From NCBI GenBank assembly GCA_963803145.1, contig CAWDLW010000017.1, forward strand, positions 96,001 to 160,000: a DNA stretch of 64,000 bases, written 5' to 3'. The position numbers and the translations under genes are program-made. Position 1 is the stretch's first letter. The number at the start of each line of letters is the position of its first letter. The notes under the pieces were generated by a model. It was not told the DNA's origin. It saw only the letters and a program-made list of their open reading frames with translations, and searched no databases. The DNA is from Methanotrichaceae archaeon. GTDB taxonomy: Archaea; Halobacteriota; Methanosarcinia; Methanotrichales; Methanotrichaceae. This document shows positions 18,131 to 54,968 of this stretch, in pieces.

Positions 18131-19150
18131 CTAGGAAGACTGCTGAGTACTACCAGCCATGTCATTTCCCGAATCGTCTGGGGTTGGATTGGGTATTGGC
18201 CCCGGCATGGGTCCTGGGGTCGGGTTAGGTACAGGTCCCGGCATGGGCCCCGGCACTCCTCGGCAGAGGCATTGGCCGTTTACATAATTACAGTTGGGGT
18301 TCGACTCGCATGCAGCTGCGGGATTAGGTACAGGTCCTGGTGGACATTGACATTGTCCATCTGCCCAAAAGCATCCTGGCTTCTTTTCGCATTCGGCTAC
18401 TGGATTGGGGGCAGTGCAAACGCATTCGCCCTTAGTGTCATCCCAGAAGCAGTTGGATTTTTTCTGACATTCCGCCTTTGGATCAGGGTTAGGCGGCGTT
18501 GGTTTAGATGTTGCTGAATATACATCTATAGTAACTGTGTTGCTGTTACCGCTGTTTGTAGTAAATACGTTGTAATGTCTTCCCTGCATATCGGCATAGT
18601 ACCACATTAGGTAGTAGCCAGGATTGAAAACTCCCAGATTATACTTAATAACAAATCGACCCGAGTAGACCTCATACATTGTCACGGGTGTCTTGACAGG
18701 CACGTATAAAAGCTCTCGAGCCCAGCTTCCCAAAGGCATAGTGGCATACCAGGTCCAGCCAGTGGCTCTTTCAATCCACATGCCTGCCGTATTGCTGGGG
18801 AATGTGGAAAGGAATCCATTCCACTGAATGGTGTTGCCCCTGTAGAAGATGGACGTCGGCGGGCTGGCCATGATATTGAATGCCGTCAATGTTCTTTGGC
18901 TTGATGCAGGTGGAGCTAAACTCGTGTAGCTGGCCGCATTCACCGGCTCGGTGGTCGCCATTTGCGGCGCGTCATCCGCAACAGGAGCATTTGTTATATC
19001 CTCTTGCAAACCCAAAGCAGCAAGATTATTTATACTCAAGTTATCGGCGCTATTAGCGCCAGTAGTTCCTGATTGGTCCAATCCCCCAAGAACAGGGATG
19101 GACAGGAGGAATATGCTCAATGCTATCCAAAATATGTATTTATTTTTCAT
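18131..19150 (-). CDS. Secreted protein: aromatic-rich beta domain plus three Cys4 repeats and PGPVPNPTP tail
   Basis: Signal peptide; repeats ECQKKSNCFWDDTKGECVC, ECEKKPGCFWADGQCQC, ACESNPNCNYVNGQCLC. Confidence 0.8.
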   Translation of the reverse strand: MKNKYIFWIALSIFLLSIPVLGGLDQSGTTGANSADNLSINNLAALGLQEDITNAPVADDAPQMATTEPVNAASYTSLAPPASSQRTLTAFNIMASPPTSIFYRGNTIQWNGFLSTFPSNTAGMWIERATGWTWYATMPLGSWARELLYVPVKTPVTMYEVYSGRFVIKYNLGVFNPGYYLMWYYADMQGRHYNVFTTNSGNSNTVTIDVYSATSKPTPPNPDPKAECQKKSNCFWDDTKGECVCTAPNPVAECEKKPGCFWADGQCQCPPGPVPNPAAACESNPNCNYVNGQCLCRGVPGPMPGPVPNPTPGPMPGPIPNPTPDDSGNDMAGSTQQSS

Positions 19151-19252: not shown

Positions 19253-20335
19253 TAGTTAATCCACGTAATTTTTACCTCATAGATACCCTTAAATAATTAA
19301 TATACGATATAGCCGTTCATGGGCAGGAAACCTGTAATTGTAAGACATATCTCGAAGGTAGAATTAGATCAATTGTATAAAGATGAGAGAAACATAAGAA
19401 TTAAAGAACGGCTACTAGCGATAATACATTTATACGAAGGAAAGAATGTATATATAGTAGCTGATATTCTTAAACGAAGTGAAAAGACAATAAAGAATTG
19501 GCTAAGCGATTGGAACAAACAAGGATATGATGGATTGATACCACAGAATAGAAACGGCAAAGAACCAATGATATCTTTTGATGAATGGGATAAAATTATC
19601 GAAGAGATTGAGGACAAAGGAATGACTATAAAAGAGGTAATAAAATATGCAAAAGACACAAGAGGCGTAGAATATTCGTATAAAGGTGGTTGGAAGATTT
19701 TAAGATCAATAAAGAAAGTCAAATATGGTAAACCATATATTAGAAATAATAAGAGGCCTGTTAATGCAGAAAGTTTTCTAAAAAAAGGATAGATTCAGTA
19801 ATAACAACAGTCAAAGAACCTATTATTGGATTCCTTGATGAAAGCTCTTTGCAACAGCGACCTAATACACGCAGGGTTTTAAACACCCATATGCTAAATT
19901 ATCAACCTGGAAAAGTTAGGTCTAGAACTGTTTTTGGGTTCATTGCATTGAATGGAAATGATGAAGTTATGGTCTCTCACTCATCCAAGAAAGAAGATTT
20001 AATGATCTTCGCCCAAAAATTGAGAAGTAACAATATTATGAGACCAATATGTATTGTCCTAGATAATGCTAGAATACATCTAGCTAAGAAGTTTAGGGCA
20101 TTAGCCCACGAACTTGATATCCATTTAATATATAACGTGCCATATTCCCCTGATTTAAATCCTATAGAGTTCGGTTGGAAGGATTTTAAAAGAGAGATAT
20201 CAAAATATACTGATTTTGATGAAGCTATTGAGGATGCCCAAGATTGCGCTTTACAAATATTTTATTCCAATAAAGATGGATACTCTAAGTCTTGGATAAA
20301 GCAGTTTATAAGGTAAAAAGTTGGGAGAATGACTA
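19253..20335 (+). mobile_element. IS630-family insertion sequence, apparently intact
   Basis: Imperfect ~25 bp TIRs (TAGTTAATCCACGTAATTTTTACCT / AGGTAAAAAGTTGGGAGAATGACTA), TA duplication at 19251-52 and 20336-37, AT-rich relative to flanks. Confidence 0.9.
19319..20316 (+). CDS. IS630 transposase split into HTH ORF (19319-19792) and DDE ORF by a -1 frameshift
   Basis: A7G at 19780-19787; -1 frame gives GFLDES, then VLDNARIH and PYSPDLNPIE. Confidence 0.87.
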
Positions 20336-20635: not shown

Positions 20636-21742
20636 TCACTTGCCTTGACTCTGCGGGCAGGCGTTTATTATAAAGATATTGATTGTAGCACCTGAAGTGC
20701 GATTCATCTGTGTGTAGTTTAGTATTCTATCCAGATATTTTAGGGCAGTATCTCCCTCAGGCATCGTTTCATTTACAACGACTGCAGTTCCTGCATTGGA
20801 TGGAGCTATGGCAGGCTTTGATGGCGCCGATGGAGCCGCGGCAGGCTCGGGTGTTGCAGTGATATTGACATTGCTAATATCCAGACCCGGCTCAGCCTTT
20901 TTAAGGGCTTCTACGAATGCTGGTTTTTCAGTATATCCTGACAGCGTCTGATTTAGGCTTCCATTCTTGAAGATAAAGAACACCGGGAAGAATGTGATAT
21001 TGTATTTTGTGGCAGTCTCGTTGTTCTTCAAAGCATTTATAAGACCGAAGGCAACCTGGCCTTTAAGCTCATTTGATAGCTCGAGAATAGTTGCGTTATT
21101 CGCCTTGCAGTAGCCGCACCAATCGGCAAAACCCATCAGTACGAACAGGGGATACTTCTTCACTGCGAACGTGAGAGTGCTGTCATTTACTTTCATAGGC
21201 ATAGCAGGTTTATCCGCCCCGAGGTCGATCAGAGGTATATCTCCCTGATTTGCAGCGGGCGCTGGAGGAGTAATCCCCAGCTGGGCGACTATCTCAACGC
21301 GGCTCGTGTTCAGCCCTGGCCTAAATGTCTTGAGCGTATCTACAAGATCTGACTCATTGCTGTATCCTAACCGAGTATCGATGAGAGTACCATTTTTGAA
21401 TATCAGAAGCGTTGGTAAGTCAGTGATGTTATATCTCTTGACAATCTTGCTGTTATTTCCGACATCGATCACCCCGAAGGCCATCTGGCCGTTTAGCTCG
21501 CTTGAGAGCAGATTGAATGCAGCGTTCATTTCTTTGCATGGCGGGCACCAAGGAGCGTAGCAATCAAGAGCAAAAAATTGGTATTTGCTTATTGTGCTGT
21601 TGACAAGGCTGTCATTTAGTTCAAGGGCCAATCCCTGAGAGCTATTTGAACTTGATTGCTGACCCGCCGCTGAGGTGATGATTGGGCTAAATGCCGCTAG
21701 TAAAACTAACAGAAGGTATAAGATTATTCGTCTGTTATGCAT
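20636..21742 (-). CDS. Secreted two-domain thioredoxin-fold protein (PDI-like)
   Basis: Signal peptide; WCPPC and WCGYC active sites each followed by P-x-x-x-IFKNG; Pro/Ala linker. Confidence 0.85.
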   Translation of the reverse strand: MHNRRIILYLLLVLLAAFSPIITSAAGQQSSSNSSQGLALELNDSLVNSTISKYQFFALDCYAPWCPPCKEMNAAFNLLSSELNGQMAFGVIDVGNNSKIVKRYNITDLPTLLIFKNGTLIDTRLGYSNESDLVDTLKTFRPGLNTSRVEIVAQLGITPPAPAANQGDIPLIDLGADKPAMPMKVNDSTLTFAVKKYPLFVLMGFADWCGYCKANNATILELSNELKGQVAFGLINALKNNETATKYNITFFPVFFIFKNGSLNQTLSGYTEKPAFVEALKKAEPGLDISNVNITATPEPAAAPSAPSKPAIAPSNAGTAVVVNETMPEGDTALKYLDRILNYTQMNRTSGATINIFIINACPQSQGK

Positions 21743-21899: not shown

Positions 21900-22808
21900 T
21901 CATATCCCAATAGGAAGAGTGCCTGGGCAGCAGGACAACCAACCCTCATCGTCATCAGATATGTTTGTAGGATTGATTGCCTTTAATGGACTTACCAAAG
22001 TCATATCAAGTTTCTCAGAGGTGTTAAAGTCACCGTAGTATCTTCTATAACCCTCGTTGACAGCAATCGTTCCTCTGCTAGTGTTGGCCGGCAAGCTCTG
22101 TCTATATTCTAGGTCTGCTATTCCAGTGGAATGGGCGGCAACACTGTAGGTGAGTTCCTTATTGGATTCTTCCCTGGCAGTCTTGGTGGAGTCGTTCAGA
22201 TTTATCATGATCACCCTTATATTCAAAGCGCGAATTCCTATGGCTCTCTCTTTGCTGTAGTTGGTATTATAGAGGAAGTTGGTGAATACATCAGCCTGAT
22301 TATTGCCCATGAACTCATTATCGTTGATACCCTTCCCGGAGTACTCAATGCGATCGATCATGTTCACATTGCTGGACGGAGTATTTCTGGCGTAATATTC
22401 ATTTGATCCCGGAATCCTTACCAGCTCAAGATCTGATGGATTGATGTATTTTAATTTCCCTGTTATGGCCTCCTGCGAGCTGTAGTTCCCCTGGCGGGCT
22501 GAAGTGCTCTCCTTTAACTTGAAGTTCTTAACTGCCGCATTAAAGTAGCATGACTGGAGTGGCGCTATTGTCCTGCCATTGTAGGCCTTTATGGGCTTTA
22601 TAGTGCCGCTAACGAGGCTATCCATCTCAAGGTTCAGGCTGACGCTTTGATGTGAAATATCTGTTGGCGAACTGCTGCCAGCGGCGCCTGGATAGAGATT
22701 ATCTTGATTGAGGCCCCCATTCTCGTTCAAAAATTCGTCATTTAGGCTGGCATTGGCCTGAGAGATTAGAATTAATATAAGTATGAGAACAAATATTTCA
22801 AGCCTCAT
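21900..22808 (-). CDS. Secreted hypothetical protein with C-terminal WLSCCPG motif
   Basis: Signal peptide from MRLEIF; long ORF with many N-x-S/T sequons. Confidence 0.7.
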   Translation of the reverse strand: MRLEIFVLILILILISQANASLNDEFLNENGGLNQDNLYPGAAGSSSPTDISHQSVSLNLEMDSLVSGTIKPIKAYNGRTIAPLQSCYFNAAVKNFKLKESTSARQGNYSSQEAITGKLKYINPSDLELVRIPGSNEYYARNTPSSNVNMIDRIEYSGKGINDNEFMGNNQADVFTNFLYNTNYSKERAIGIRALNIRVIMINLNDSTKTAREESNKELTYSVAAHSTGIADLEYRQSLPANTSRGTIAVNEGYRRYYGDFNTSEKLDMTLVSPLKAINPTNISDDDEGWLSCCPGTLPIGI

Positions 22809-22902
22809 CCGGCCACCTCGCATGATTCGATGTCGACATAGCAGATTATGGGCATCAGGAGCCACATTTCCTTCAAGTGACAGCCATCTCCCTACGGATC
22901 TC

Positions 22903-22956
22903 CTAAGGTTTGATGGAGAGCATCAACAGAAATCCATTAACTGCTTTAATTATCAT
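22903..22956 (-). pseudogene. Second orphan signal-peptide stub of the Cys-rich paralog family
   Basis: MIIKAVNGFLLMLSIKP-stop versus MIVKAAIGFLLLMLFIVP; preceded by the same GAGGG RBS and upstream block. Confidence 0.65.
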
Positions 22957-22998
22957 GATTCTTTGTTCCCTCCAAAGACTGGCTTGTAAATGTTAGCA

Positions 22999-23085
22999 TA
23001 AATAGTTATTCATTATGGTCTAAAATCTTACTAATACACTTTTGCCCGGGGATCTACCTCTCCCAATATATCAAAATCCAATGCA
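22999..23085 (-). promoter_or_regulatory. Copy of the promoter block found upstream of the Cys-rich paralogs
   Basis: TAAATAGTTATTCATTAT(G/A)GT recurs at 22999, 25185, 26193 and 27084; reads ATAATGAATAACTATTTA (TATA-like) on minus strand. Confidence 0.65.
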
Positions 23086-23183
23086 TCTAGAATAGGATGG
23101 AAAAGGGAGTTTAGGTACAAGGCCACAGCGACAAAGAATTTAAATATTCCTGATACCTTCTGCAACAAACTAGGAGGTATATC

Positions 23184-23582
23184 ATGGAGAATGAGAAGAG
23201 AATTGCAGCGGTTTTTACTGCTCTTCTGGCGCTGACATGCCTTGTATTGCCTGCTATGGGATATTCAATATCCGGACTAGTTTACAGTGACATAAATAAA
23301 AATGGAGTCATGGATCGAAATGAGAACGGTCTTGCCAATATAACCGTAAGTCTGGGAGGGCCTGTGCTCTGCCTCAACGACAAAGGATTGTTTGTGGAGC
23401 CGAATGTCTACAGTCTGAACATGACAACCAACAAAACAGGCATCTTCAATTTCACGGTTGATAAATTTGGGCGGTACTTCCTTAAGGCGATCGACGGAGA
23501 TACGATTCTAGTTAAGCCGTCAGCTATAGATATCGCACATCCTAATGATATAATAAACCTTAACCTCACAGAAATAAAATAA
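23184..23582 (+). CDS. Secreted SdrD B-like (Cna-B-type) domain protein
   Basis: SISGLVYSDINKNGVMD-x-NE-x-GLANITV-x-L, TTNKTG-x-F-x-F. Confidence 0.75.
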   Translation: MENEKRIAAVFTALLALTCLVLPAMGYSISGLVYSDINKNGVMDRNENGLANITVSLGGPVLCLNDKGLFVEPNVYSLNMTTNKTGIFNFTVDKFGRYFLKAIDGDTILVKPSAIDIAHPNDIINLNLTEIK

Positions 23583-23679
23583 AGAGGGTATCCGGCCCGA
23601 AAATCTTTTTTTGACTCTAAACCGAATCCGTTTAAAACAGCCAAGCTAATAAAATTATAATTGGAGGCAATACTGCCCA

Positions 23680-24114
23680 TCAACTGGCAATGTAGAATGC
23701 ATTAGGTTGTTGCTGCGAATCGTCTAGATTGTATACGACTCCGGAGTTGTAATTGTATGCTTCGCCTAGATCAAATTCAGAAGTATACCATCCTAACGGC
23801 GCATTTATAGGTACATCCCAGATTGAGCATACCCAGTCAGATGTTTCCCCAGGTTGAAGGTATACCGGCCTTGCATCGCCATAATACCAGTTGCCGTATG
23901 GGTCTTCTACGGATAGCTGAACCCAGAAAGTACATGGCACATATCCTGTATTAGTGATCTTGGCGCAATTGCCGCCAATGCCGTTTTGTCTATACCAATC
24001 GCCGCTAGCGAACTGGTAATCAGTGATCTTTGCATCTGTCGTATCTGATGCGGCCAGAGCTATTGGAACCCCAACAAAGGAGATCAACAATAACCCGCAT
24101 ATTATCTGTTTCAT
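23680..24114 (-). CDS. Secreted single Ig-like (CARDB-like) domain protein, paralog of 36344-36778
   Basis: Signal peptide; ITNTG, FWV, PGET, QPNAF. Confidence 0.7.
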   Translation of the reverse strand: MKQIICGLLLISFVGVPIALAASDTTDAKITDYQFASGDWYRQNGIGGNCAKITNTGYVPCTFWVQLSVEDPYGNWYYGDARPVYLQPGETSDWVCSIWDVPINAPLGWYTSEFDLGEAYNYNSGVVYNLDDSQQQPNAFYIAS

Positions 24115-24502
24115 CAAATTCACACCCTCCATGCGATATTTATTTGGGCTGTTATTGCAGACCTTTCTATTAAGTTCTTTCGGAACTATTGAAAAATTAT
24201 AGCGAACTTATAAAAAACGAGGGATGCTATGGGCCTAAAATACAAATGGCGAAATTATCATTGGAATACTACGATCCCTCTTCATTTAAGCCCTAAATCG
24301 CGTCCGGCATTGCAATTCTCAAAACTAACTGGTTATTCGCTTATCAGTTTTCTATAAATTTTATTAACCTTGAAAAAATATCATAGGACTATTAGGGGAA
24401 GAGGAGGCCAGGGCAGAGCCTCCCTAGCCATTCCTGGCCACTCTCATCGTCCCAGTTAGCAGGCACTCGCCATCGGCCCAGCGTTAGTCAGGGTTCTTCT
24501 CG

Positions 24503-25135
24503 CTATCCATTTGGTGTTGGATTGGGTACTGGCCCTGGCATGGGTTCAGTTGGATTCGGCACCGGTTCCGGCATAATCTCTTCAGGCTCAGGCATAACGC
24601 ATATGCACCGACCATCTCTCCATGCACAGTTGGGATCTTTCTCGCACTCTATCTGCTCAGGGTTCGTCATAGCGCATAGGCATTCACCATTGACCCAGTG
24701 GCATTTAGGGTTGGCCTCGCAGTCAGCCGTGAGGTTTTGAACAGGTGCAGCTCCGGAGTTGGAGGATTTCACATCGCAATGATAGCCAGGAAGAAATATA
24801 AATCGGCATGTCGGACCCTTATGCTCATCCCATGGGCATGATTCTGGAAGATAAGCATCGCATATAAATTCTTCATACGGATCAGACACGCAACTGTTAG
24901 GAATATTTATCACTGGATAACAAGGCCCGTGTAAAAGTTTTGGTAATTTTTCCCCGGTTGATATTCTATAGCAATATCCGTTCCAAGTAGCACAACTCAT
25001 ATCCTGATTCGCAGATAGGTTATCGCTCCCAGTCGCCACATTATTCTGATTTATTTCCGGCTGTGCCAGTGTCGGCACGATGAAGAGCATCAGCAACAGA
25101 AATCCAATAGCCGCTTTCACTATCATATTTTTCAT
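24503..25135 (-). CDS. Secreted Cys-rich paralog 1 (leader, variable 8-Cys core, constant Cys4x2 plus Pro tail)
   Basis: Signal peptide; C-terminal ~80 aa near-identical to two neighbours. Confidence 0.88.
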   Translation of the reverse strand: MKNMIVKAAIGFLLLMLFIVPTLAQPEINQNNVATGSDNLSANQDMSCATWNGYCYRISTGEKLPKLLHGPCYPVINIPNSCVSDPYEEFICDAYLPESCPWDEHKGPTCRFIFLPGYHCDVKSSNSGAAPVQNLTADCEANPKCHWVNGECLCAMTNPEQIECEKDPNCAWRDGRCICVMPEPEEIMPEPVPNPTEPMPGPVPNPTPNG

Positions 25136-25520
25136 CCCTCCAAAGCCTTGGAAATATTTGCTTAAAACTGGTTCATAACCTACTTAAATAGTTATTCATT
25201 ATGGTATAAAATTTCGCCAATACACTTTTATCCCGACATATATATCTCCCAATATAGCAAAATCCAATGATGCAAATGTTGCATCCTTAATGCTCACCCT
25301 CGATGCCTCCGATGCCATCTTCGGGAGCCCGAACTTGATGGGGATATATGCTTAGACTGTTATTTCCAGGAGGCCAGGGCGGAGCCTTCGGAGATTTCTC
25401 GAAACTAACGACTCATGGCCGAAGGATGAAGAGAAGCGAGCTTAGGCGGCGCATTAGAATAAGGCTTCATGAGCTTAATTCTATCAAAAAATGAGATGAA
25501 ATGTGCAGCCTGATCTCTTG

Positions 25521-26135
25521 CTATCCATTTGGTGTTGGATTGGGTACAGGCCCTGGCATAGGTTCAGGTGTTGGATTGGGTACAGGTCCCGGCATTGGCT
25601 CCACAGGCTCAGGCATAACGCAGATGCACCGGCCATCTCTCCATGCACAATTGGGATCTTTCTCGCACTCTATCTGCTCAGGACTTTGCATGATACATAG
25701 GCATTCACCATTAACCCAGTGGCAATTAGGGTTGGCCTCGCAGTCAGCCGTGAGATTTTGAACCGGTGCAGCTTCAGGACCGGGTTCATGCCATTTGCAC
25801 GGTTTCGTGAATTGTAATTTGCATTCGCAGCGCAATCCACCCTCGTGGCAAGGGCATGGCCTAGGGAAATCCTCGTTACAAGTAGTGCCCCCATTGCCAA
25901 ATTGGATAGGCAAGCATTCTCCAGCCCAAATTTTCAACTCACAATGCCCTTGTGTAGTACCGGACCAACCAGTATACCAGTTATGGCACACACCAGTCCA
26001 AGTGCCTTCACAGCCTGTTGGTGGGTTCACGTTATTGCTTCCAGTCGCCGTAATATTCTGATCTACATTCTGTGCCAGTGCTGGCATAATGAAGATCGCC
26101 AGCAGCAGCAATCCAATAGCCGCTCTCACTATCAT
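25521..26135 (-). CDS. Secreted Cys-rich paralog 2 (variable 10-Cys core)
   Basis: Same architecture; ends MPGPVPNPTPNG. Confidence 0.88.
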   Translation of the reverse strand: MIVRAAIGLLLLAIFIMPALAQNVDQNITATGSNNVNPPTGCEGTWTGVCHNWYTGWSGTTQGHCELKIWAGECLPIQFGNGGTTCNEDFPRPCPCHEGGLRCECKLQFTKPCKWHEPGPEAAPVQNLTADCEANPNCHWVNGECLCIMQSPEQIECEKDPNCAWRDGRCICVMPEPVEPMPGPVPNPTPEPMPGPVPNPTPNG

Positions 26136-26456
26136 GTTTTTTCATCCCTCTCACGCCTTGAAATATTTGCTTAAAGACGGTAAACGCCTATATAAATAGT
26201 TATTCATTATAGTTTAAAATCTTGCCAATACATTTTTATCCCGACGTATATATCCAAATATAGCAAAATCTAATGATGCAAATGTATCCTAAATGCTCAC
26301 CCTCTCCGCCTCCGATGCCATCTCCGGGAGCTCGAACTGGATGGAGATATATGCTTAGACTGTTATTTCGAGGTGGCCAGGGCCTTCCTGGCCGCTCTCA
26401 TCGTCCCAGTTCGTAGGCACTCGCCATCAGCCCAATGGCAGTCAGGGTTCTTCTCG

Positions 26457-27026
26457 CTATCCATTTGGAGTTGGATTCGGTACAGGCCCAGGCATGGGTT
26501 CAGTTGGATTGGGCACCGGCCCAGACATGATCTCTTCAGGTTCTGGCATAACGCAGATACACCGGCCATCTCTCCAGGCACAGAGAGGATCTTTCTCGCA
26601 CTCTATCTGCTCGGGACTTTGCATGACACATAGGCATTTACCATTGACCCAGTGGCAGTTAGGGTTAGCCTCGCAGTCAGCCGTGAGATTTTCAACCGGC
26701 TCGGCCTCGGAATTCCAGATCCAGTGGCAATAACCGTACGGTTTATATTTGAAAGTACATTTTTGACCATTATCGCATTTCAAGCTAGTATAACGGGCAC
26801 ATACTTGGCTCATATCTTCTTTGGGCTCACATGTCCCCCAAGACAACCCACAAGATCCACCTAATGTTTGGCTCGCTCCATATTGATCATAGCAGATTCC
26901 ACTCCAACCTGAACACTCCATTGGCGCGGAAATACTGCTTCCAGCCGCCGCATTATTCGTTATTTGTGCCAGTGCCGGCGCTATGAAGAGCACTAGCAGC
27001 AATCCAATAGCCGCTTTACATATCAT
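26457..27026 (-). CDS. Secreted Cys-rich paralog 3 (variable 8-Cys core)
   Basis: Same architecture; ends MPGPVPNPTPNG. Confidence 0.88.
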   Translation of the reverse strand: MICKAAIGLLLVLFIAPALAQITNNAAAGSSISAPMECSGWSGICYDQYGASQTLGGSCGLSWGTCEPKEDMSQVCARYTSLKCDNGQKCTFKYKPYGYCHWIWNSEAEPVENLTADCEANPNCHWVNGKCLCVMQSPEQIECEKDPLCAWRDGRCICVMPEPEEIMSGPVPNPTEPMPGPVPNPTPNG

Positions 27027-27274
27027 AGTTCTGTCATTCCTCCGACTCGGAAATATTTACAATGTGACGATTCAGTATCGACATAAATAGTTATTCATTA
27101 TAGTTTAATATTTTTCAGTTTCAAAAAAAAGAGCTTGAAGGTGCAGCTTCATACCTTCCAGACCAATTTGTATTTTAGTGTTTCGATCAAAATGATTTTG
27201 AAGTTATCCAAGTCGCTACAGATGGCTCTAAATATCAAGAATTGATAATGTAGATTTCAAGAAAAGGAGGCCAG

Positions 27275-27673
27275 ATGATGAATGGATATTTGATTCTGTT
27301 GTTGGTCGCAGCCCTCTCCTCAATAGGGTTAGTTTCAGCAAATAGCATATGCGATAATGCTCCGTGCGAAAAACCAATAAATGCCAGCATCGGAGAGGAT
27401 TTTAGTATAACTATAGGATCCAATCCAGGATCGACAGGCTCTGACTGGTGGACAAATTTTGATACCCAATACATAAGCCTGGCAAATTCGACCTTCGTTC
27501 CCGGAAATGCGCCTTCTGGAATGGAGGGTGTACCCGGAAAGAGAATTTTCACCTTCAATGCCAAAAGAGCTGGCAATACTGAAGTGATCATGCTCCTGCT
27601 TCAGCCCTGGGTTAACGGCACTATCGCAGAGGAAAAAATCTTTCCTGTAAGCATCAAAGCTGCTGTAAAATAG
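27275..27673 (+). CDS. Secreted chagasin-family (I42) cysteine peptidase inhibitor
   Basis: G-E-x-F-x-I, SNPGSTG-x-x-W, G-x-x-G-x-R-x-FTF-x-A, QPW loop. Confidence 0.8.
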   Translation: MMNGYLILLLVAALSSIGLVSANSICDNAPCEKPINASIGEDFSITIGSNPGSTGSDWWTNFDTQYISLANSTFVPGNAPSGMEGVPGKRIFTFNAKRAGNTEVIMLLLQPWVNGTIAEEKIFPVSIKAAVK

Positions 27674-27809
27674 ATCTCCTGGCGATTTCCTCCATCCTTC
27701 ATTAGGGTGGGTGCATTGCTCTCAAATTTTATCTATATAGAAGAGATTCAAGGAGCTTGATGGAAAGTTTTAAGTATTAACATATTTTTAAAGTATTATT
27801 TAATGTTGG

Positions 27810-30077
27810 TTGGAGTTGCTAATCATGTTGAGCTGTATGCCTAGAAGAGCCTTTATCATCCTGCTTTGGGCTATGTTAATTGTATCGATAATTCCTGTCT
27901 TGGCCGAACTTAATCTTACCAATTCGACTCAAAATAGTCCTATTTCGCAATTGGCAATCGATAATGAATCCGTCCAAGTATCAATGCTAAAGCTGCCATT
28001 AAGCTTCATAGAGAACCTTGGTCAGTCCTCTAACGATGTAAAATTCATGATCAAGACCTCCGGGAAGACTATATTCTTTACTCCTTCCGACATTGTATTT
28101 GCGTTATCCGGCGGCAACAATTCGTCTGTGGTCCATATGGAATTTGAGGGCTCTAAATCATGTCAGATAATAGGCGAAGGGCAGCTTCCTGGCACAGCCA
28201 ACTTCTTCATCGGAAATGATTCGTCCAAGTGGGTAACCGAGATACCTACCTATAGCGCAGTCAGATACAAAGATTTCTATCCTGGAGTCGATCTGGTCTT
28301 CAAAGGCACGGAAGGAAGCCTGAAGCATGAGCTGCTGCTGAAGCCCGGCGCGGACCCGGCCAAAATCGTTATGGCTTACAGCGGCCAGGATAACCTGAGC
28401 CTCGACAAGAATGGATCGATCCTGATCAAGACTATTGCAGGCAACCTCACAGACTCTGCGCCCTTCTGCTACCAGGACATCGATGGGAGCAGGGTGATTG
28501 TCGAGGGGAAATATCGAAGAATTGATACCAATAAGATAGGGTTTGAGATCAAAGAATATAATCAGAGCCTTCCTCTTGTGATAGATCCCTTGCTGAGATA
28601 TTCTACCTATCTAGGTGGTAAGGGTTATGATGAAGGCAATGGCATAGCTGTAGACTGCAGCGGCAACGCCTATGTTACAGGACGGACGAAGTCGACTGAC
28701 TTCCCGACAAAAAATGCATACCAGGCCGCGAACGCAGGGTTTGAAGACGCTTTTGTCATCAAGCTGAGCCCCGCGGGGAATAAACTTGTCTACTCCACTT
28801 ATCTGGGAGGTAGCGGTCCCGACAGCGGCAATGGCATAGCCATAGATAGCAGAGGTAACGCCTATGTTACAGGAAGGACCGATTCGACTGACTTTCCGAC
28901 AAAAAATGCATACCAGGCTGCGAACGCAGGGTTCGCCGACGCTTTTGTCATCAAGTTGAGCCCTGCGGGGAATAAACTTGTCTACTCCACTTATCTGGGA
29001 GGTAGCCGAAATGATTTTGCAAATGGCATAGCTATAGGCCCGGGCTCCAGCGGTAACGCTTATGTTACAGGGCGGACGAAGTCGACTGACTTCCCGACAC
29101 AGAACCCATACCAGGTCGCGAATGCAGGAAACAACGACACTTTTGTCACAAAGTTAAGTCCCGCAGGGAATAGACTCATATATTCCACTTATATGGGAGG
29201 CAGCAAAAACGAGAGCGGCAGTGGCGTAGCTGTAGATCGCATCGGTAACGCTTATGTTACAGGATTCACGGATTCGGATAACTTTCCGACCAAAAACCCA
29301 TACCAGGCCACGAAGGCAAAATGCTCCGACGCTTTTATCACAAAGCTGAACCCTGCAGGGAATAAACTGGTCTATTCCACTTACCTAGGCGGCAACAGCT
29401 GCGATATTGGCTATGGCATAGCCGTAGACAGCAGCGGTGACGTATATATTGCAGGGATCACACCTTCGACCGACTTTCCGACCAAAAACCCATATCAGGC
29501 TGTAAACGCGGGAGGTGGCGACGTTTTTGCAGCCAAGCTTAATCCTGCAGGGAATAAACTTGTCTACTCAACTTATCTGGGTGGTAGCGGTGAAGACTGG
29601 GGCAAAGGCATATCTGTAGACAGCAGAGGTAACGCTTATGTTACAGGATGGACGTATTCGACCAATTTCCCAACCAAGAATGCATACCAGGCCGCAAATG
29701 CAGGAGTACATGACGCTTTCATAGCCGTCTTTACAAAAGCGCCTCCAAATACGCCATCCATGCCTTCAGGACCTGTTTCAGGTAAGATAAGAACACTCTA
29801 CAGGTATACGACATCAGCCATAGATCCCGAGGGAGGCCAAATTAAATATACCTTCAACTGGGGAGACGGAACAACATCGACAACACGTCTGGTCGACTCT
29901 GGAACAGAGGCATTTGCATATCATAGATGGACAAAAGAGGGAACATTCCAGGTTAAGGCCATGGCTACAGATAGCAAAGGTGCGACCTCGGAATATTCAA
30001 GTGCATTGGGTGTTAGAATAGGTTATGTCCGATTGTGCGTACGCCTCTTGAAGGAAGCCAGCCATAGCATCATTTGA
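27810..30077 (+). CDS. Secreted SBBP-repeat beta-propeller protein with N-terminal domain and C-terminal PKD domain
   Basis: Six repeats YSTYLGG..D...GIAVD..GNAYVTG.T.S.DFPT; FIENLGQ and LVIDP; WGDG PKD motif. Confidence 0.88.
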   Translation: MELLIMLSCMPRRAFIILLWAMLIVSIIPVLAELNLTNSTQNSPISQLAIDNESVQVSMLKLPLSFIENLGQSSNDVKFMIKTSGKTIFFTPSDIVFALSGGNNSSVVHMEFEGSKSCQIIGEGQLPGTANFFIGNDSSKWVTEIPTYSAVRYKDFYPGVDLVFKGTEGSLKHELLLKPGADPAKIVMAYSGQDNLSLDKNGSILIKTIAGNLTDSAPFCYQDIDGSRVIVEGKYRRIDTNKIGFEIKEYNQSLPLVIDPLLRYSTYLGGKGYDEGNGIAVDCSGNAYVTGRTKSTDFPTKNAYQAANAGFEDAFVIKLSPAGNKLVYSTYLGGSGPDSGNGIAIDSRGNAYVTGRTDSTDFPTKNAYQAANAGFADAFVIKLSPAGNKLVYSTYLGGSRNDFANGIAIGPGSSGNAYVTGRTKSTDFPTQNPYQVANAGNNDTFVTKLSPAGNRLIYSTYMGGSKNESGSGVAVDRIGNAYVTGFTDSDNFPTKNPYQATKAKCSDAFITKLNPAGNKLVYSTYLGGNSCDIGYGIAVDSSGDVYIAGITPSTDFPTKNPYQAVNAGGGDVFAAKLNPAGNKLVYSTYLGGSGEDWGKGISVDSRGNAYVTGWTYSTNFPTKNAYQAANAGVHDAFIAVFTKAPPNTPSMPSGPVSGKIRTLYRYTTSAIDPEGGQIKYTFNWGDGTTSTTRLVDSGTEAFAYHRWTKEGTFQVKAMATDSKGATSEYSSALGVRIGYVRLCVRLLKEASHSII

Positions 30078-30115
30078 CAAAAGTCTTAAGAGCTTAAAAA
30101 ACAAAACAAAAGCTT

Positions 30116-31294
30116 GTGATCACAGCGCTCGCTATTAAGCGGTCGACTTTATCAATTATCATTTGTCTATTAGCTGTCTGCTATAGCGTTCATGCAGAAG
30201 AGGTCAATTCTTCGATGATATTATTATCGCAATTTGAGGAAAGTAAGCTTTATAGGATTGACGGCCTCCCAATTATTCAGTTGTCAGGAAGCTATAGGGA
30301 GATGGGCAGACAAGAAGGAAGTCTTCTCAAAGATCAGCTTCACGAATTCTACAATGAAAGTGTAGTAAATTATTTCATCAGAGAGAAAAATTTTTCATAT
30401 AAGCGGATGGTCATAAAGTCGACGGACGTATTCGGCCGCTATCCCAAGAGATTTAGGGACATACTCGCAGGCATGGCTGAGACTTCAGGAATGTCTCTTG
30501 AGAACTTGACAATTCTCAGCAGGGTTCCTTTCGTTTCGCCGAGCTGCTCGGCACTCTTCGCATGGGGAAATTATTCGCTGGACGAATCAATGGTAGTTGG
30601 CAGAAATGCTGATTTTTATTCGGTTACCAATGATTTCTTGAACTATACGATCATAGTGGTCTACAATCCAACCGACGGCAGTCACTCTGTAGCAACCGTA
30701 TGCCGTCCAGCTCAGCTTCAGATTCATACCGGAATGAACGATCAAGGTCTTTTCCTTGAAGCCAATGACGGATCATCATCAGGAGGCAGCATCTTTTATC
30801 CTGATAGATCCACCTACATTGGATCTTTCCTCTTTGATTGCTCAAATCTCAGGCAGCTCGATGCAGCTGTATTTTCTTCGAGAATCGATTGGGCCACAAT
30901 CTTGAATGTGGCCGATGAAAATACTTCTGTCTCCTACGAGTGGGCAACATTCGATGTCAAGAGGCGTGGACCGAACAGGGACGGCCTGTTGGCCTCAACC
31001 AACCACTTTATGAATCCCGATTGGGGATTTTCTCTGCCATTGGGCGACCCCAATCACACTGTACTTAGATATAGCAATCTCCTTTCGCTGGGAGAGATGT
31101 ACAAAGGCAGATTTGACCCAAAAACCATGATGAAGGTGCTTGATACGCCCCTGGAGAGCGGCGGAGCCACGGGTCCCTACACCCGCCTTCAGGTTGTGGC
31201 AGTTCCATCGACTAGAGAGATGTGGATAAAGGTTCCAAAATACCGGAATTGGACAAAAGTAGATCTGAAGGAGCTCTTCCGATCCCCAAATTGA
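30116..31294 (+). CDS. Secreted peptidase C45-family Ntn-hydrolase (paralog of 16789-18012)
   Basis: GSYREMGRQEG, S|CSALFAWG, GRNAD, TGMNDQG, STNHF. Confidence 0.8.
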   Translation: MITALAIKRSTLSIIICLLAVCYSVHAEEVNSSMILLSQFEESKLYRIDGLPIIQLSGSYREMGRQEGSLLKDQLHEFYNESVVNYFIREKNFSYKRMVIKSTDVFGRYPKRFRDILAGMAETSGMSLENLTILSRVPFVSPSCSALFAWGNYSLDESMVVGRNADFYSVTNDFLNYTIIVVYNPTDGSHSVATVCRPAQLQIHTGMNDQGLFLEANDGSSSGGSIFYPDRSTYIGSFLFDCSNLRQLDAAVFSSRIDWATILNVADENTSVSYEWATFDVKRRGPNRDGLLASTNHFMNPDWGFSLPLGDPNHTVLRYSNLLSLGEMYKGRFDPKTMMKVLDTPLESGGATGPYTRLQVVAVPSTREMWIKVPKYRNWTKVDLKELFRSPN

Positions 31295-31442
31295 GATGAT
31301 TCTAGATGACATGATCCAGGTCCACTCCGTCCAGTTCTGCGCCCCTGGAATTCTGACCCAGATCCTCAAATCCTTCTGCACCGCCGCCACCTGGTAGCTT
31401 GTGGGAAGATCCACCGTCTGGAGAGGTCCACCCTTAGACAAT
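31290..31442 (-). pseudogene. 3' fragment duplicating the end of C45 gene 16789-18012
   Basis: LSKGGPLQTVDLPTSYQVAAVQKDLRIWVRIPGAQNWTE versus LSKGGPLQTEELPTSYQVVAVPKDLKIWVRIPGVQNWTE; frameshift near end. Confidence 0.85.
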
Positions 31443-31599
31443 TGGGGTAACGGCGATTGCATGGATCTCCTCCATCTCAAGACCCACAAAGCGTAGAGGT
31501 TACATCCCAACAACATAACCCCCAAATTACACGCCCTACAAATCTCCCATCCATTTTAAAGCAAGCTCCCTACCAATGGTTATCACCTCCCTTCAGGTT

Positions 31600-32140
31600 G
31601 GCTTGCACGCTATCGATCCCTGCCACCGTAACCGTGTTATTCGTTACCATAGTCCATAATCAGCTCTCTCATTGGGCAGAGCCACCAATAATTTTGAACT
31701 AACTGATCAATAACATGAACGCCGTTCTCAGTATTGATGATTGGAAACTCGCATCCTGCAAAGATTTTTCTGGAGGCATCATCGAGTATCACTCACACTT
31801 TTAGACCAGTACGATCATCTTCATGCCAATCGATATGTCCTGCGGTCTTACTGTGCTCGGCCCGCGCTCATATCTCACTCACTTTCGACGCTTCTGTTTA
31901 TTGGGGCCCTGGACCGATAGCCCCTGAGACATGAGATACATGTGGATTCTATTATAATCTTGAGCTTATACGTCTTCTTGATAACTACTTCGAGCATTCC
32001 CGCGCCGAACTTGAACTGCAGGTAAGCCTCTTTTATGATCAGTGCTTCTGTTTCGTCATAGGATTTTCGAGGACGACCAACGCACATTAGATGATATTTT
32101 TGATACAAACACAAGGTTGGTTTATCGGAGTCTAATGAGA
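31600..32140 (-). mobile_element. Degenerate IS481-like (integrase-core) transposase remnant
   Basis: Minus strand GRPRK...FKFGAGML, NKQKRRK*VRYER, GHIDWHE, VILDDASRKI with stops and frameshifts; boundaries approximate. Confidence 0.7.
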
Positions 32141-32429
32141 CCACGATTTTTAAATATTAAGTTAGATATTTGTCTAAATGGGTTCGCGGATGGCAAGAAC
32201 TCTATCCAAAAGCAAAGATGTAGAAATATCTCAAATTTTTCAATTGGATACGTGCCAGTTTCACAGTGCATCTGCTTACGTTTATCTCTAAACAATCCTA
32301 TTAGTGATAATCATCTTTCCAATATCTCTTGATGAATATATAAAACCAAAACATTCGGAACTATACAATATAAACCAATCAGGGCAATAATTTAAATAGT
32401 TAATCAATATGTTTACTCAGGAGGAAACT

Positions 32430-32774
32430 ATGAAGAAAATAATATATATAATTGCAATTCTGCTAGCAGGAGTCATAGCAGCTGGAATAGCCTCAAGCGA
32501 CTCGTATAATACCCCAACGGCAACTACCGTTAGGCAGATCATTGCCCATCCCATTGATGGTATGCATGTGACATTAACAGGGCAAGTTACGCAGAGCCTA
32601 GGTTATAGACACTACATGTTCTCTGATGGGACAGGGACGATAATGCTGGATCCCGACCACGATTTTCCCTCTTCCTACTTCCCGCTAAATACGAAGCTGG
32701 TCGTCATGGGAGAGGTTGACCACGAGGACGGAGTTCTAGAAGTTGATGTTGATTGGGTGACTGCAGCGAGCTAA
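32430..32774 (+). CDS. Secreted bacterial OB-fold (BOF, YgiW/YdeI-like) protein
   Basis: TTV, VTLTG, YMFSDGTGTI, V-x-GEVD, EVDVD; RBS AGGAGG. Confidence 0.8.
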   Translation: MKKIIYIIAILLAGVIAAGIASSDSYNTPTATTVRQIIAHPIDGMHVTLTGQVTQSLGYRHYMFSDGTGTIMLDPDHDFPSSYFPLNTKLVVMGEVDHEDGVLEVDVDWVTAAS

Positions 32775-33298
32775 GATTCTGAGATGCATTTGAACGGGAA
32801 ACTCATGCTATTAGCATTGAATGAGAGTCCCTGAAAAAAATCGCCGCGTTCCTTTGGGTATTTCCTGTTCAAGGCCAAAACATGATAAATATCTTTATTT
32901 TTACCCTGATCCTTAATAATTATAATAACCGATGCCCTCATCCTTTAGTGGAACCAGTGGCAGGATCACTCGGGCAAAAGTGGCTAGACCACGAGTATAA
33001 CCGTCGATAATTTCATCTGGATGACAGCGACAGAGATAGAGATAACAGCAAGCTGAAAAAAAGAGTAGCTATCCTCCATATATTTTTGACTTTAAATTCA
33101 TGCGATCGAGTCCGGAGCGTATGAGAAATAGACCAATATTCCACATACCGACTTTACACTTTTATTAGATGATGTACTCAAGTCCTATGTATACACTTAA
33201 AGTCAAAAAAGAGTTCAATACAAGACCCATAAAAAACAAAAACTTTATATACCCCCTAATCCACAATTACATCAAAAATATATATGGACTGATGGAGT

Positions 33299-35122
33299 AT
33301 GAGGGCTTATAAGTTTTTCCAGGTCTTGCTGGCTCTTATTTTATTAGCCGGTTTATCGGTAGGTCAAGAACAGAATACGAGCACAGATCAGCCAAATGCT
33401 GGCCCAATTACAGTCAACTACAACGGTACTGCAATTCCAGATCATGTCACATTATCCTGGGTCCGAGACCCTATGACGACCCGGACCGTGACCTGGAGAA
33501 CGGGTATTACTGTCAATAAAGGTGTAGTCCAATACAGCGACAATCCTGGGCTTCGTCATCCGCTGTCTGTCACGGCTTATGTACGCAGACTGAAGGCAGA
33601 TCTTTGTGATGAGAACATCTACAATGCCACACTTATAGGTTTAAGGCCTGGAACCCGGTATTACTATAGGGTTGGTGATGGGACGACGAAAAATTGGAGC
33701 TCCATATACTTCTTTGACATCGAGAAAAAACTTAACCCAATGACTTATAGTTTGAAGTTTTTGGTCTTTGGGGACACCCAAGCCAAGGATGAAAATTCCC
33801 CGTATTATAGTCTTTGGGATCGCACGGTCCACAACGCATATGCGCTCAACCCTGACGCCAGGTTTTTTACAGTAGTGGGCGATCTTGCGCAATCAAGCCT
33901 AAGCAATCCCAACTGGAACCTCTGGTTCAATGCAGCTAAAGGCGTTATTGATAGAATTACATTTATGCCAGTCGAAGGAAACACCGAGTGCAAAATGATG
34001 AATAAGCCGAAGGATAAGGAACATGGAGAGCCAGCCATATATACAGGTCAGTTCAACGTGCCGAAAAATGGTCCTTTTAAAAACTGTGAAGCATATTCGT
34101 ACGACTATGGAGATGTGCACTTCGTGGTGCTGGATAGTCAGCTCAGGGAGACAATTAAAACCCGCCCGGATCTGCTAGGAATACAAGCGAGTTGGTTGGA
34201 AAATGATCTAAGGCAGACCACGAAGAAATGGAAAGTGGTCTTCTGGCATAAACCAACCTATCCCACCAGGGCTTATAGAACAAACGAGGGAATCAAAGCC
34301 AATTTTACCTCGATCATCGATAAGTATCATGTGGATGTGGTATTCAACGGCCACGACCATGCTTATGCCCGAACCTATCCCATCAACAATGATGAGATAG
34401 TCGGCTCTCCGGCATTGGGCACGGTTTATGTAGTAACGGGAAGAAGCGGTGAGAAGGACATTCCAGATAATGAGCGTAAAGCATGGGATGTTGACTTCTT
34501 TAGCTCGCAGGATATGCCGAACTACATTGTCGTAACTGTCAGCAACTCCCAGATGAATATAAAGGCATACAAGATGGATGGAACGCTCATTGATAATTAC
34601 ATCATCGATAAGAAGAACGGAGACACGTCTAAGACAGTCATACCTTCCAGGTATAATGATACTCAGTTAGCCGTCAATGGTGATTTGCTCAATCAGCTTT
34701 TGATGCCGGAAACCAAAGACCCGACTTTCCCGTACCAGATCAATGGCAAGTGGTACTTCCCAATCAAGCCGGTGGTGGAGTTCCTTGGCGGCAACGAGTC
34801 GTCAGTTTCAGCCGATAATGAGAACCTGTCACTTAGTGTGAAGAATAACGAGAGTAGCAAAATCTGGAAGAAAAATAAAATCCATACTGTCTTCTTGACC
34901 AATACCAGCACCAAAGCAATCGTTGACAAAAACAAGGAGAAACCCATCGAGATCACACTTCCAGATCCTGTCATGGTCGTGAGGGATGATGACACAAAAG
35001 TACCGGTCTTTCTCATCTCTGCCGATGATATGCACACGCTCTTCGGCTTCACCTGGAGGTACGACCCGAACTGGAACGTGCTGTTCTTGATCAACCCCGG
35101 TAAGAATGGGGAAGGAGTGTGA
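33299..35122 (+). CDS. Secreted purple-acid-phosphatase-like metallophosphoesterase with N-terminal FN3 and C-terminal accessory domain
   Basis: GLRPGTRYYYRVG, FGDTQ, VGDL, GNTE, WH-x-P-x-Y, NGHDHAYAR. Confidence 0.85.
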   Translation: MRAYKFFQVLLALILLAGLSVGQEQNTSTDQPNAGPITVNYNGTAIPDHVTLSWVRDPMTTRTVTWRTGITVNKGVVQYSDNPGLRHPLSVTAYVRRLKADLCDENIYNATLIGLRPGTRYYYRVGDGTTKNWSSIYFFDIEKKLNPMTYSLKFLVFGDTQAKDENSPYYSLWDRTVHNAYALNPDARFFTVVGDLAQSSLSNPNWNLWFNAAKGVIDRITFMPVEGNTECKMMNKPKDKEHGEPAIYTGQFNVPKNGPFKNCEAYSYDYGDVHFVVLDSQLRETIKTRPDLLGIQASWLENDLRQTTKKWKVVFWHKPTYPTRAYRTNEGIKANFTSIIDKYHVDVVFNGHDHAYARTYPINNDEIVGSPALGTVYVVTGRSGEKDIPDNERKAWDVDFFSSQDMPNYIVVTVSNSQMNIKAYKMDGTLIDNYIIDKKNGDTSKTVIPSRYNDTQLAVNGDLLNQLLMPETKDPTFPYQINGKWYFPIKPVVEFLGGNESSVSADNENLSLSVKNNESSKIWKKNKIHTVFLTNTSTKAIVDKNKEKPIEITLPDPVMVVRDDDTKVPVFLISADDMHTLFGFTWRYDPNWNVLFLINPGKNGEGV

Positions 35123-35344
35123 TAAGATCCTTGGTATACTTCACCCATTGCGCTATCAAAGTTGGGTCTTAATATCGCCAGGACCCAACTGAGATGGTAG
35201 ATCGGAGATGATTGGGCGAGACTTGATTTCGCCTCGCATTTGAATAATTTTTGCATAGATCATTCTCATGATAGTAGAACAAAATAGGCCGACAAGCCGG
35301 ATGGGCCTGCCGACCACTTAATCAATCTTGTCTATTTAGCAGTC

Positions 35345-35589
35345 CTAGGAAGACTGCTGGTTGCTGCCGGCTAGGCTATTCCCTGAATAATCTGTGGCAT
35401 CAACGCCAGAATTGCCACCATCTAGCCTGTTGCACAAACATTGGTTATTAACCCAATGGCGCCCGGGATTCATCATGCATTGCTGTACTGGATCCGGTCC
35501 GGGTGTTGGATTGGGCACCGGTCCGGCATGGGCTCCGGGTTCGGGTTAGGTACCGGTCCCGGTAGACATTGACATTGCCCATCTGGAGA
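35345..35589 (-). pseudogene. Remnant Cys4/Pro tail homologous to the C-terminus of 18131-19150
   Basis: DGQCQCLPGPVPNPNPEPMP, 1-nt deletion, then GPVPNPTPGPDPVQQCMMNPGRHWVNNQCLC...LAGSNQQSS-stop (versus MAGSTQQSS-stop). Confidence 0.8.
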
Positions 35590-36159: not shown

Positions 36160-36276
36160 ATTTCCATCCGCCTCATATAATTATGTATATGTTGTATGCT
36201 TTGTAAGGTTTTTGGGCAAAAGTCTACCAAATTGAATTCGACACCTTTATCGATCGTGTGATGGTCATGAGGCTCG

Positions 36277-36301
36277 GCTGCTGAAAAATATTTTCAGCAG
36301 C
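36277..36301. terminator. Perfect 11-bp inverted repeat (possible hairpin/terminator)
   Basis: GCTGCTGAAAA-ATA-TTTTCAGCAGC, 43 bp downstream of 36344-36778. Confidence 0.4.
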
Positions 36302-36343
36302 TTGCTCAAAGACCAAAACTTCACTGGTGGCACCTCTATTTCT

Positions 36344-54941: not shown

Positions 54942-54968
54942 ATCAAGGGCAAAAAGAGCAATAATTAG

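Follow-up and report, generated by a model that had tools for sequence, protein, structure and literature searches.

A stretch of 64,000 nt (the window) from contig CAWDLW010000017.1 of a Methanotrichaceae archaeon (assembly GCA_963803145.1) contains three neighboring genes, here named A, B and C, for secreted cysteine-rich proteins (Table 1; coordinates refer to positions within the window unless another contig is named). These genes probably encode paralogous disulfide-rich heads of old origin, each joined to a conserved stalk, and are kept in a recombining tandem array. According to this reading, the array would consist of three intact paralogs and the decayed 5' end of a fourth, and each protein would be composed of a Sec signal peptide, a head with eight cysteines (ten in B), a stalk of two repeats and a Pro-rich linker. 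The heads would be old paralogous lineages, mutually as distant as they are from the head of the only foreign homolog. Tandem duplication, unequal crossing-over or gene conversion would have preserved the likeness of promoter, leader, tail and 3' flank, with the tail additionally under strong purifying selection, and a last repeat would have been lost by frameshift before the genes multiplied. The array is not an active hypermutation system.

Architecture of the array proteins

The three open reading frames (ORFs) of the array are open on the minus strand, and the ORF listing places them exactly where a preliminary description of this DNA had located them. That description had also reported a common leader and a common tail of ~80 aa around a divergent center, which agrees with the protein alignment: signal peptide and the last 81–82 residues are invariant or near-invariant across the three proteins, with a divergent middle. 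Protein identities are 0.88–0.92 in the tail, 0.56–0.65 in the leader and 0.26–0.40 in the head, the latter range being set by the alignment (0.32–0.40 for the Cys-to-Cys core). On the DNA level, identity in 50-column windows is 0.26–0.52 in the head and rises to 0.76–0.94 where the tail begins. An independent repeat search recovered a tail repeat of 204 nt in three copies (83–88%) and a promoter repeat of 43 nt in four copies.

By inspection, the leaders are of the Sec type and end in ..P(A/T)LAQ. A short Asn/Ser/Gly-rich stretch and then the head (63–73 aa) follow, and the mature proteins comprise ~165–185 aa. The head opens with the motif C-x2/3-W-x-G-x-C and is organized along the framework C-x6/7-C-x13-17-C-x6-9-C-x9-11-C-x7-C-x4-9-C-x7-9-C, the lengths of the loops varying among the proteins; the head of B holds two additional cysteines. 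Both the framework cysteines and the opening motif are retained in A, B, C and the outside homolog P0004; a fixed Cys frame with variable loops had been proposed earlier for A, B and C. Even Cys counts of 8, 10 and 8 in the cores had been reported and were recounted; each tail contains eight cysteines, and the counts are even in every part (heads and tails) of the three proteins. One more cysteine of gene C is located within its signal peptide. All parts are acidic, with isoelectric points (pI) of 4.1–5.6 overall, 4.7–5.6 for the heads and 4.1–4.2 for the tails.

The tail consists of two copies of a 22-aa four-Cys repeat (Cx5Cx6CxC) with the pattern C-E-x-[ND]-P-x-C-x-W-x-[ND]-G-x-C-x-C, recognized by a hidden Markov model (HMM) with E values of 1e-13 to 1e-15 per copy, and of a Pro-rich linker, PEP..MPGPVPNPT, that extends to the stop codon. 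The tail half-motifs given in the preliminary description are present; they are two copies of one repeat and not a unique tail. The C-termini of A, B and C (...PVPNPTPNG) contain no hydrophobic stretch, and neither an archaeosortase/PGF-CTERM-type sorting motif with a hydrophobic helix nor an NCBIfam match was found there. A propeptide processing site was not evident in the three proteins. Degeneration of stalk repeats was considered as the origin of the heads and rejected, since the repeat HMM found only fragments in the heads and the head-repeat probability in hhalign was 0.2%. As a hint, the last segment of the B head aligns to a repeat in some relatives (query from residue 90–91).

Age of the heads and probable mosaic history

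Ratios of nonsynonymous to synonymous substitutions (dN/dS) among A, B and C were estimated per segment after Nei-Gojobori, a procedure whose values are distorted by multiple hits and misalignment. The tail is under strong purifying selection (dS 0.45–0.75, dN 0.054–0.065, dN/dS 0.08–0.12). The leader yielded a dS of 0.21–0.40, a dN of 0.20–0.25 and a dN/dS of 0.5–1.1. In the head, dN was 0.79–0.86 and the proportion of synonymous differences (pS) 0.70–0.85, with dS (2.0) and hence dN/dS (0.39) computable only for A-C; because synonymous sites are saturated there, a dN/dS above 1 is not shown. Codons of identical residues were compared in addition to cope with multiple hits and misalignment. 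They differed at 13/20 (A-B), 9/21 (A-C) and 13/20 (B-C) positions of the head, at 13/69, 19/66 and 18/68 positions of the tail and at 4/21, 6/21 and 5/19 positions of the leader, that is at 43–65% of the identical residues in the head versus 19–29% in its flanks (Fisher test, head versus tail: p 1.6e-4 for A-B, 0.29 for A-C and 2.8e-3 for B-C). The heads thus exceed the other segments by far in silent-site divergence as well, a pattern expected of older heads or of a local mutator and not predicted by selection for amino-acid change after a recent triplication. The diversifying selection proposed in the preliminary description is not shown by these data.

Within one gene, dS increases from leader to tail to head. 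Three silent-site ages in a single gene are a mark of mosaic history and fit a mosaic produced by recombination. In the weak alignment of the heads, scores with P0004 (54 for A, 66 for C) are in the range of those among the array proteins or above (A-B 36, A-C 51, B-C 59), whereas the tails are 0.89–0.92 identical among A, B and C and only 0.58–0.62 identical to P0004.

The targets of diversity-generating retroelements (DGRs) also have a variable segment in an otherwise constant secreted protein. In contrast to these, the variable part of the array proteins is central and contains indels, and neither a reverse transcriptase nor a template repeat was found. A retroelement mutator is excluded, as the genome (99.3% complete) lacks RVT_1; the control search matched three of 14 reference genomes. 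With blastn, no extra head-like copy and no template repeat was detected in the genome.

Conservation among related strains

Four DNA runs (X1–X4) contain parts of the window. X3 represents the same strain (five pieces at at least 99%) and perhaps the source sample, and hence was not counted as independent. X1, X2 and X4 derive from one sediment sample of one study and contain relatives. Among these, record 10 covers the start of the C tail and the whole C head (26631–26958) with 2 differences in 328 nt (99.4%). Beyond the head, 14 unmatched letters are followed by a leader like that of B (9 differences in 62) and not that of C. Record 6 spans the head, leader and upstream region of C (26631–27500) with 57 differences and 15 gap letters in 870 (~92%), none of the listed indels being located within the head proper. 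In other contigs, tails and 3' flanks change from A-like to C-like sequence or back (at 24465/26427, 25381/24416 and 26371/24403), and the repeat element found downstream of B is missing from one of these contigs. The cores had been described as hypervariable. For gene C, the head is the part that related strains conserve, with a variability not above that of its flanks, and the leader is variable. For this gene, this is the observation that the preliminary description had named as evidence against its own view. For the heads of A and B, X1, X2 and X4 gave no cover at a threshold of 80%, from which nothing is drawn.

Several observations weigh against a set of old heads in a recombining array. 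The codon comparison comprises 20–21 codons per pair in poorly alignable sequence, where misalignment mimics saturation, and the A-C pair did not differ significantly. The runs test for conversion tracts within the tail was not significant (P 0.21). The likeness of A and B upstream and of A and C downstream can follow from the layout of tandem units alone. In record 3, an A-like promoter and leader are followed by the A tail, the part in between having failed to align at 80%, and some heads may accordingly differ between strains. Moreover, head dN (~0.8) is larger than tail dS and far larger than the divergence of the non-coding flanks (~0.13). Had all parts of the unit been duplicated together, the heads would have changed at a rate above neutral; such an accelerated evolution of the heads, measured against flank divergence, is compatible with the data. 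With regard to the predicted disulfides, double thioredoxins and the repeat family do not co-occur in the genomes of the family (full-length double-thioredoxin homologs in ~12 of 61, the repeat family in 36 of 61), and stable extracellular disulfides are not self-evident in a strictly anoxic, sulfidic habitat.

A recent triplication whose heads diverged under diversifying selection, similar to conotoxin, defensin or NCR families, and which supplied an antagonistic, adhesive or recognition repertoire, would accommodate the conserved leader and tail, the constancy of the Cys framework while loops change in sequence and length, the intact frames and even Cys counts, and the A-like ends around an unaligned middle in a related strain; ω measured against the flanks would exceed 1. 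Selection on the protein sequence does not explain the saturated synonymous sites of the heads, however, and the C head (99.4% and ~92% identical in related strains) does not vary more than its flanks. Only four family members were found in all data searched, and the array proteins are acidic, of ~165–185 aa when mature and without match in PADLOC or PHROGs. We consider this explanation unlikely.

Table 1 Features of the array and of related loci within the window
Feature	Position	Strand	Remarks
Gene A	24503–25135	−	210 aa; 207 aa if second ATG (25126) is used
Gene A, signal peptide	~25061–25135	−	
Gene A, head	24749–25060	−	8 Cys
Gene A, tail	24506–24748	−	
Gene A, four-Cys repeat pair	24599–24721	−	copies 24674–24721 and 24599–24646; HMM, alignment
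Gene B	25521–26135	−	204 aa
Gene B, signal peptide	~26070–26135	−	
Gene B, head	25770–26069	−	10 Cys
Gene B, tail	25524–25769	−	
Gene B, four-Cys repeat pair	25620–25742	−	
Gene C	26457–27026	−	189 aa
Gene C, signal peptide	~26964–27026	−	
Gene C, head	26703–26963	−	8 Cys
Gene C, tail	26460–26702	−	
Gene C, four-Cys repeat pair	26553–26675	−	
Invariant 18-nt promoter box, gene A	25185–25202	−	
Invariant 18-nt promoter box, gene B	26193–26210	−	
Invariant 18-nt promoter box, gene C	27084–27101	−	
Invariant 18-nt promoter box, relic	22999–23016	−	
Fourth-copy relic	22903–23083	−	family promoter and first 17 leader codons (22903–22956; MIIKAVNGFLLMLSIKP, then stop)
Terminal-repeat relic past gene C stop	26363–26456	−	+1 frame, DSEKNPDCHWADGECL...; 2 of 4 Cys lost
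Repeat element of ~70–85 nt	25401–25485		four further copies on other contigs
Secreted paralog of large family	18131–19150	−	339 aa; same four-Cys repeats and PMPGPVPNP linkers, C-terminal
Secreted double thioredoxin (PDI-like)	20636–21742	−	WCPPC and WCGYC motifs; also TIGR01068 and PDI-domain matches

Relation of the stalk to a large secreted family

Homology links the tail of the array proteins to the C-terminus of a family of secreted proteins of ~330–460 aa (hhalign 99.9%, E 5e-35, 97 columns), of which the window encodes a 339-aa member with cysteines confined to the repeats. Signal peptide, C-terminal four-Cys repeats and PMPGPVPNP linkers are common to the large family and the array proteins. 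The large family has, however, a conserved Cys-free N-terminal domain of ~200 aa (..YYIWYYADTPGRH.., YYIWYYAD motif), present in 16 of 17 and 7 of 7 proteins in two listings with P0004 as the exception, whereas A, B and C carry an unrelated head with 8 or 10 cysteines instead. When both groups were compared with hhalign, only the tail aligned and no YYIWYYAD-type region was present in the heads. Proteins of the large family are encoded by one or two gene copies per genome without arrays and contain 2–7 repeats, in contrast to the tandem array and the two repeats of A, B and C. In 30 of 30 repeat-bearing frames of relatives' loci, the first repeat was located at aa 224–331. Members of the large family (e.g. 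P0005–P0032) are annotated as 'hypothetical protein' and originate from Methanothrix or from metagenome-assembled genomes of Methanotrichaceae.

A search of Methanotrichaceae genomes, as the preliminary description had proposed, separated the two parts of the proteins: the tail is widespread, 54 of the 99 other Methanotrichaceae genomes giving a match, and leader plus head (query residues 1–77) had no match in 60 other family genomes. Outside the family, the tail query matched two of 101 genomes from other families of the class, both marginally (E ~9e-4). A decayed copy of the large family in the genome of the array (G000:C27:58562–59008, plus strand) is an N-truncated frame with five repeats. 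Isolated single-repeat fragments occur in the same genome (G000:C15:146604–146669, minus strand) and in a congener (G019:C2:290390–290623). The congener's match was considered as a further array member and dismissed as an isolated single-repeat relic.

Between gene B (25530–25602) and the gene for the 339-aa paralog (18179–18251), the DNA of the Pro-rich linker is 82% identical over 73 nt, with no DNA match in the rest of the tails. This likeness could be due to a low-complexity constraint or to a short conversion tract.

Restricted occurrence of the head

An exhaustive head profile search in 1.84 billion representatives retrieved only P0004 and the cluster of this genome, and B, C and P0004 are each the sole member of their 90% cluster. 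Word-index searches with residues 1–112 of C, and with B among shorter proteins, gave only the query itself or nothing. Scans for related loci with A (metagenome, genome and viral contigs) and with P0004 (metagenome contigs) confirmed none. In all collections searched, the family thus comprises the three genes, one 5' relic and one metagenomic homolog, P0004. The array is absent from the two congeners searched, in which the neighboring genes for a 150-aa and an SdrD-like protein are present in other contexts (89–94% DNA identity).

None of A, B and C matched Pfam, NCBIfam, PADLOC or PHROGs, and no description of them was found in the literature searched, including passages of PMC11224092, PMC10470525 and PMC12072023. 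The earlier statement that this is not a described archaeal system stands in all of these sources. Sequence and profile searches against the PDB gave nothing significant for the array proteins. In the ESM Atlas, the model of P0004 is poor (pLDDT, the predicted local distance difference test, 0.52) and provided no usable structural neighbors; there is no entry for protein B and no model for P0022, whose feature matches were only unnamed archaeal clusters. The array proteins are an uncharacterized, very rare and lineage-restricted family.

Promoters, flanks and relics

Upstream of A and B, the DNA is 86–88% identical over ~270 nt. Upstream of C, only the last ~100 nt are shared with A and B (60–68%), the invariant 18-nt box included, so the near-identical promoter of the preliminary description applies to A and B and not in full to C. 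The box is located 60–76 nt upstream of the ATG, and exact copies occur genome-wide at only the four sites listed in Table 1; its pattern had no match in the collection of genome contigs. By our reading, a putative BRE/TATA-like element (AAAnTTTTAWAC) precedes it directly.

The fourth-copy relic is now situated upstream of an unrelated gene for a secreted protein of 302/321 aa (ATG at 22808), which may now be driven by the promoter of the array family behind a short upstream ORF. A second type of relic follows the stop codon of gene C. The homologous stretch past gene A (~24416–24502) is likewise a +1-frame repeat relic and contains an in-frame TAA; past gene B, it is replaced by a stretch with the repeat element. 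Downstream, A and C match at 86% (29 of 35 informative sites). At the position of the relic, a terminal repeat is retained by P0004 and by the large family, from which it follows that the ancestor of A, B and C lost this repeat by frameshift before its multiplication. Expression of the downstream repeat by read-through or by +1 frameshifting was rejected: read-through of the TAG meets a TGA after four codons, and decoding of the relic in the +1 frame is ruled out by the loss of two of its four cysteines and by the in-frame TAA of gene A.

The other copies of the repeat element (C11:17170–17240, C47:128–212, C25:8807–8877 and C42:83040–83110) are 79–83% identical, and the element also occurs in metagenome contigs in other contexts. 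It yielded no significant fold and no Rfam match; Rfam had no match within 22000–29000 as a whole.

Thioredoxins and genomic context

The secreted double thioredoxin of the window, similar to protein disulfide isomerase (PDI), is judged from its motifs a candidate extracytoplasmic disulfide oxidoreductase or isomerase and is not part of the array. A second gene of this type (L053 2706–3821; G000:C20:207205–208320) lies ~285 nt from the gene for a secreted STIG1-like protein of 244 aa with 28 cysteines; the two paralogs carry WC(P/E)PC and WCGYC motifs. Both secreted double-thioredoxin genes of the genome hence adjoin genes for secreted Cys-rich proteins, and in the genus of G011 a thioredoxin pseudogene adjoins a gene of the repeat family. 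The double thioredoxins may form a system by which a strict anaerobe handles disulfides outside the cytoplasm.

The array forms part of a series of secreted-protein genes. Its surroundings encode two Ntn-hydrolase-like proteins (AAT/CBAH), the 339-aa repeat protein, an IS630-type transposase, the double thioredoxin, an SdrD_B-like protein, a chagasin-type I42 peptidase inhibitor, an SBBP/PKD protein, a purple acid phosphatase and a DM9-repeat protein. The transposase gene (19319–20316, plus strand) is split into a helix-turn-helix ORF and a DDE_3 ORF and is positioned between the genes for the 339-aa protein and the double thioredoxin. In the congener G004, the ortholog (89% DNA identity) of the gene for the 150-aa protein (23680–24132) directly adjoins the NAPRTase gene. 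In the window, the NAPRTase gene (36988–38385) lies ~12.8 kb from it, and the array, the I42 inhibitor, SBBP/PKD, Ntn-hydrolase-like, purple acid phosphatase and DM9 genes as well as a gene for a 144-aa paralog of the 150-aa protein are found in between. The region 24200–36900 gives the impression of a block of genes for secreted proteins that was inserted specifically in this lineage.

Elsewhere in the genome, many other ORFs with an N-terminal hydrophobic leader have 15–19% cysteine (e.g. C20:144144–145244, C27:92807–94006, C20:151005–152195, C51:33915–34448, C20:10223–11203, C18:18461–19417 and C42:86563–87318). The most Cys-rich among them contain up to 68 cysteines in 366–399 aa with 'CPTG'-type repeats; of six scanned with Pfam, five had no match and one matched Stig1. 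Farther away in the window (54968–55057, plus strand), ARAGORN called an odd tRNA-like gene with a four-base anticodon loop (cgta) and without an identity call.

Comparison with known disulfide-rich systems

Conotoxin, defensin and NCR families are characterized by a conserved signal region, a fixed Cys framework with divergent loops and a tandem or multigene layout, and the mature peptides of defensins and most NCRs are short and usually cationic. The array shares with these families a conserved signal and a divergent region on a fixed Cys framework. It differs from them in gene number, three genes and one relic as opposed to tens to hundreds of genes, and from defensins and NCRs in its mature proteins of ~165–185 aa, which are acidic and carry a repeat stalk. 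The acidity of all parts argues against a membrane-active cationic peptide. Variability among strains of the conotoxin type, with the head above its flanks, was not observed for the C head in the sediment sample. The Cys codons of conotoxins are the topic of PMC3823881.

The stalk resembles modules of animal extracellular structural proteins. In 10.1101/2025.09.16.676614, CREMP (Cx4Cx5Cx8C) and DPY (Cx5Cx5Cx4C) are described as tandem modules of such proteins, and CREMP, Drosophila DPY and Chironomus Sp185 as loop-over-hairpin beads with Cys1-3/Cys2-4 bridges and flexible linkers. The array stalk likewise consists of tandem four-Cys modules of ~22–25 aa with linkers in secreted proteins. It differs in its spacing (Cx5Cx6CxC), in having two modules per protein and in its archaeal source. 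The stalk profile did not match the solved four-module CREMP (9pgb) significantly (E 0.27), nor was the resemblance of D-P-x-C-x-W-x-x-G-x-C to the PSI domain of semaphorin-7A (462–503, SRDPYCGWDQGRCISI) significant (E 0.31); both are kept as leads only, and the eight-Cys pattern of the PSI domain is absent from the 22-aa repeat. The array would belong to the kind of secreted modular disulfide-rich proteins, and no description of it was found in the libraries and papers searched.

Predicted function and remaining alternatives

The array proteins are probably extracellular and would, once exported, serve as surface or matrix components. Their cysteines would form two disulfides per repeat and four per head (five in B), and the secreted PDI-like thioredoxins perhaps assist in folding. 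Repeats and Pro-rich linker would act as an extended stalk, on which different heads may bind different partners. Of the variable domains on a common stalk envisaged in the preliminary description, the different heads and the common stalk are supported, and a hypervariable, diversifying character is not.

If only the stalk mattered, the genes could be redundant duplicates drifting under relaxed constraint, with the heads as decaying spacers. The frameshift loss of the terminal repeat, the reduction of a fourth copy to a promoter-leader relic, the leader dN/dS of 0.5–1.1 and the lack of the family in the two congeners searched would suit such decay, which is very unlikely in view of three open frames, Cys counts that remain even, framework cysteines and the C-x2/3-W-x-G-x-C motif that are kept as far as P0004, and a C head nearly identical in a related strain. 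Binding of metal or iron-sulfur by the cysteines, for extracellular metal capture or electron uptake in a lineage capable of direct interspecies electron transfer (DIET), would fit very Cys-rich, acidic, secreted and lineage-specific proteins in a strictly anoxic habitat and a genome with many other secreted Cys-rich ORFs, but is highly improbable given the Cx5Cx6CxC spacing without CxxC or ferredoxin-type spacings, the four cysteines of each 22-aa module, a number also known from modules with two disulfides (CREMP; 10.1101/2025.09.16.676614), secreted PDI-like thioredoxins adjoining such genes, and passages of two Methanothrix DIET papers that contain no mention of such proteins.

Implications for Methanothrix-type archaea

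Beyond old heads kept in a recombining array, the shared promoter, leader and tail blocks might act as recombination handles that exchange heads between array copies and between strains, resulting in strain-specific sets of heads. The chimeric allele in which the head of C follows a leader similar to that of B and, in the same sediment sample, the A-like ends around an unaligned middle are compatible with such an exchange, although we regard it as quite unlikely. If true, each population would display a small set of surface heads of its own that serve in kin recognition, in adhesion to partners or in antagonism, and the array would be an archaeal, recombination-driven counterpart of the Cys-rich effector repertoires of eukaryotes.

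Methanothrix-type archaea are major methane producers that grow as sheathed filaments in granules and sediments. To our knowledge, their outer surface proteins are poorly known. The array joins a four-Cys repeat stalk, which is represented by no model of Pfam, NCBIfam, PADLOC or PHROGs and is almost confined to one archaeal family, to an orphan eight-Cys head. Together with the PDI-like thioredoxins and the other Cys-rich ORFs, it suggests an investment of a strict anaerobe in disulfide-rich proteins outside the cell.

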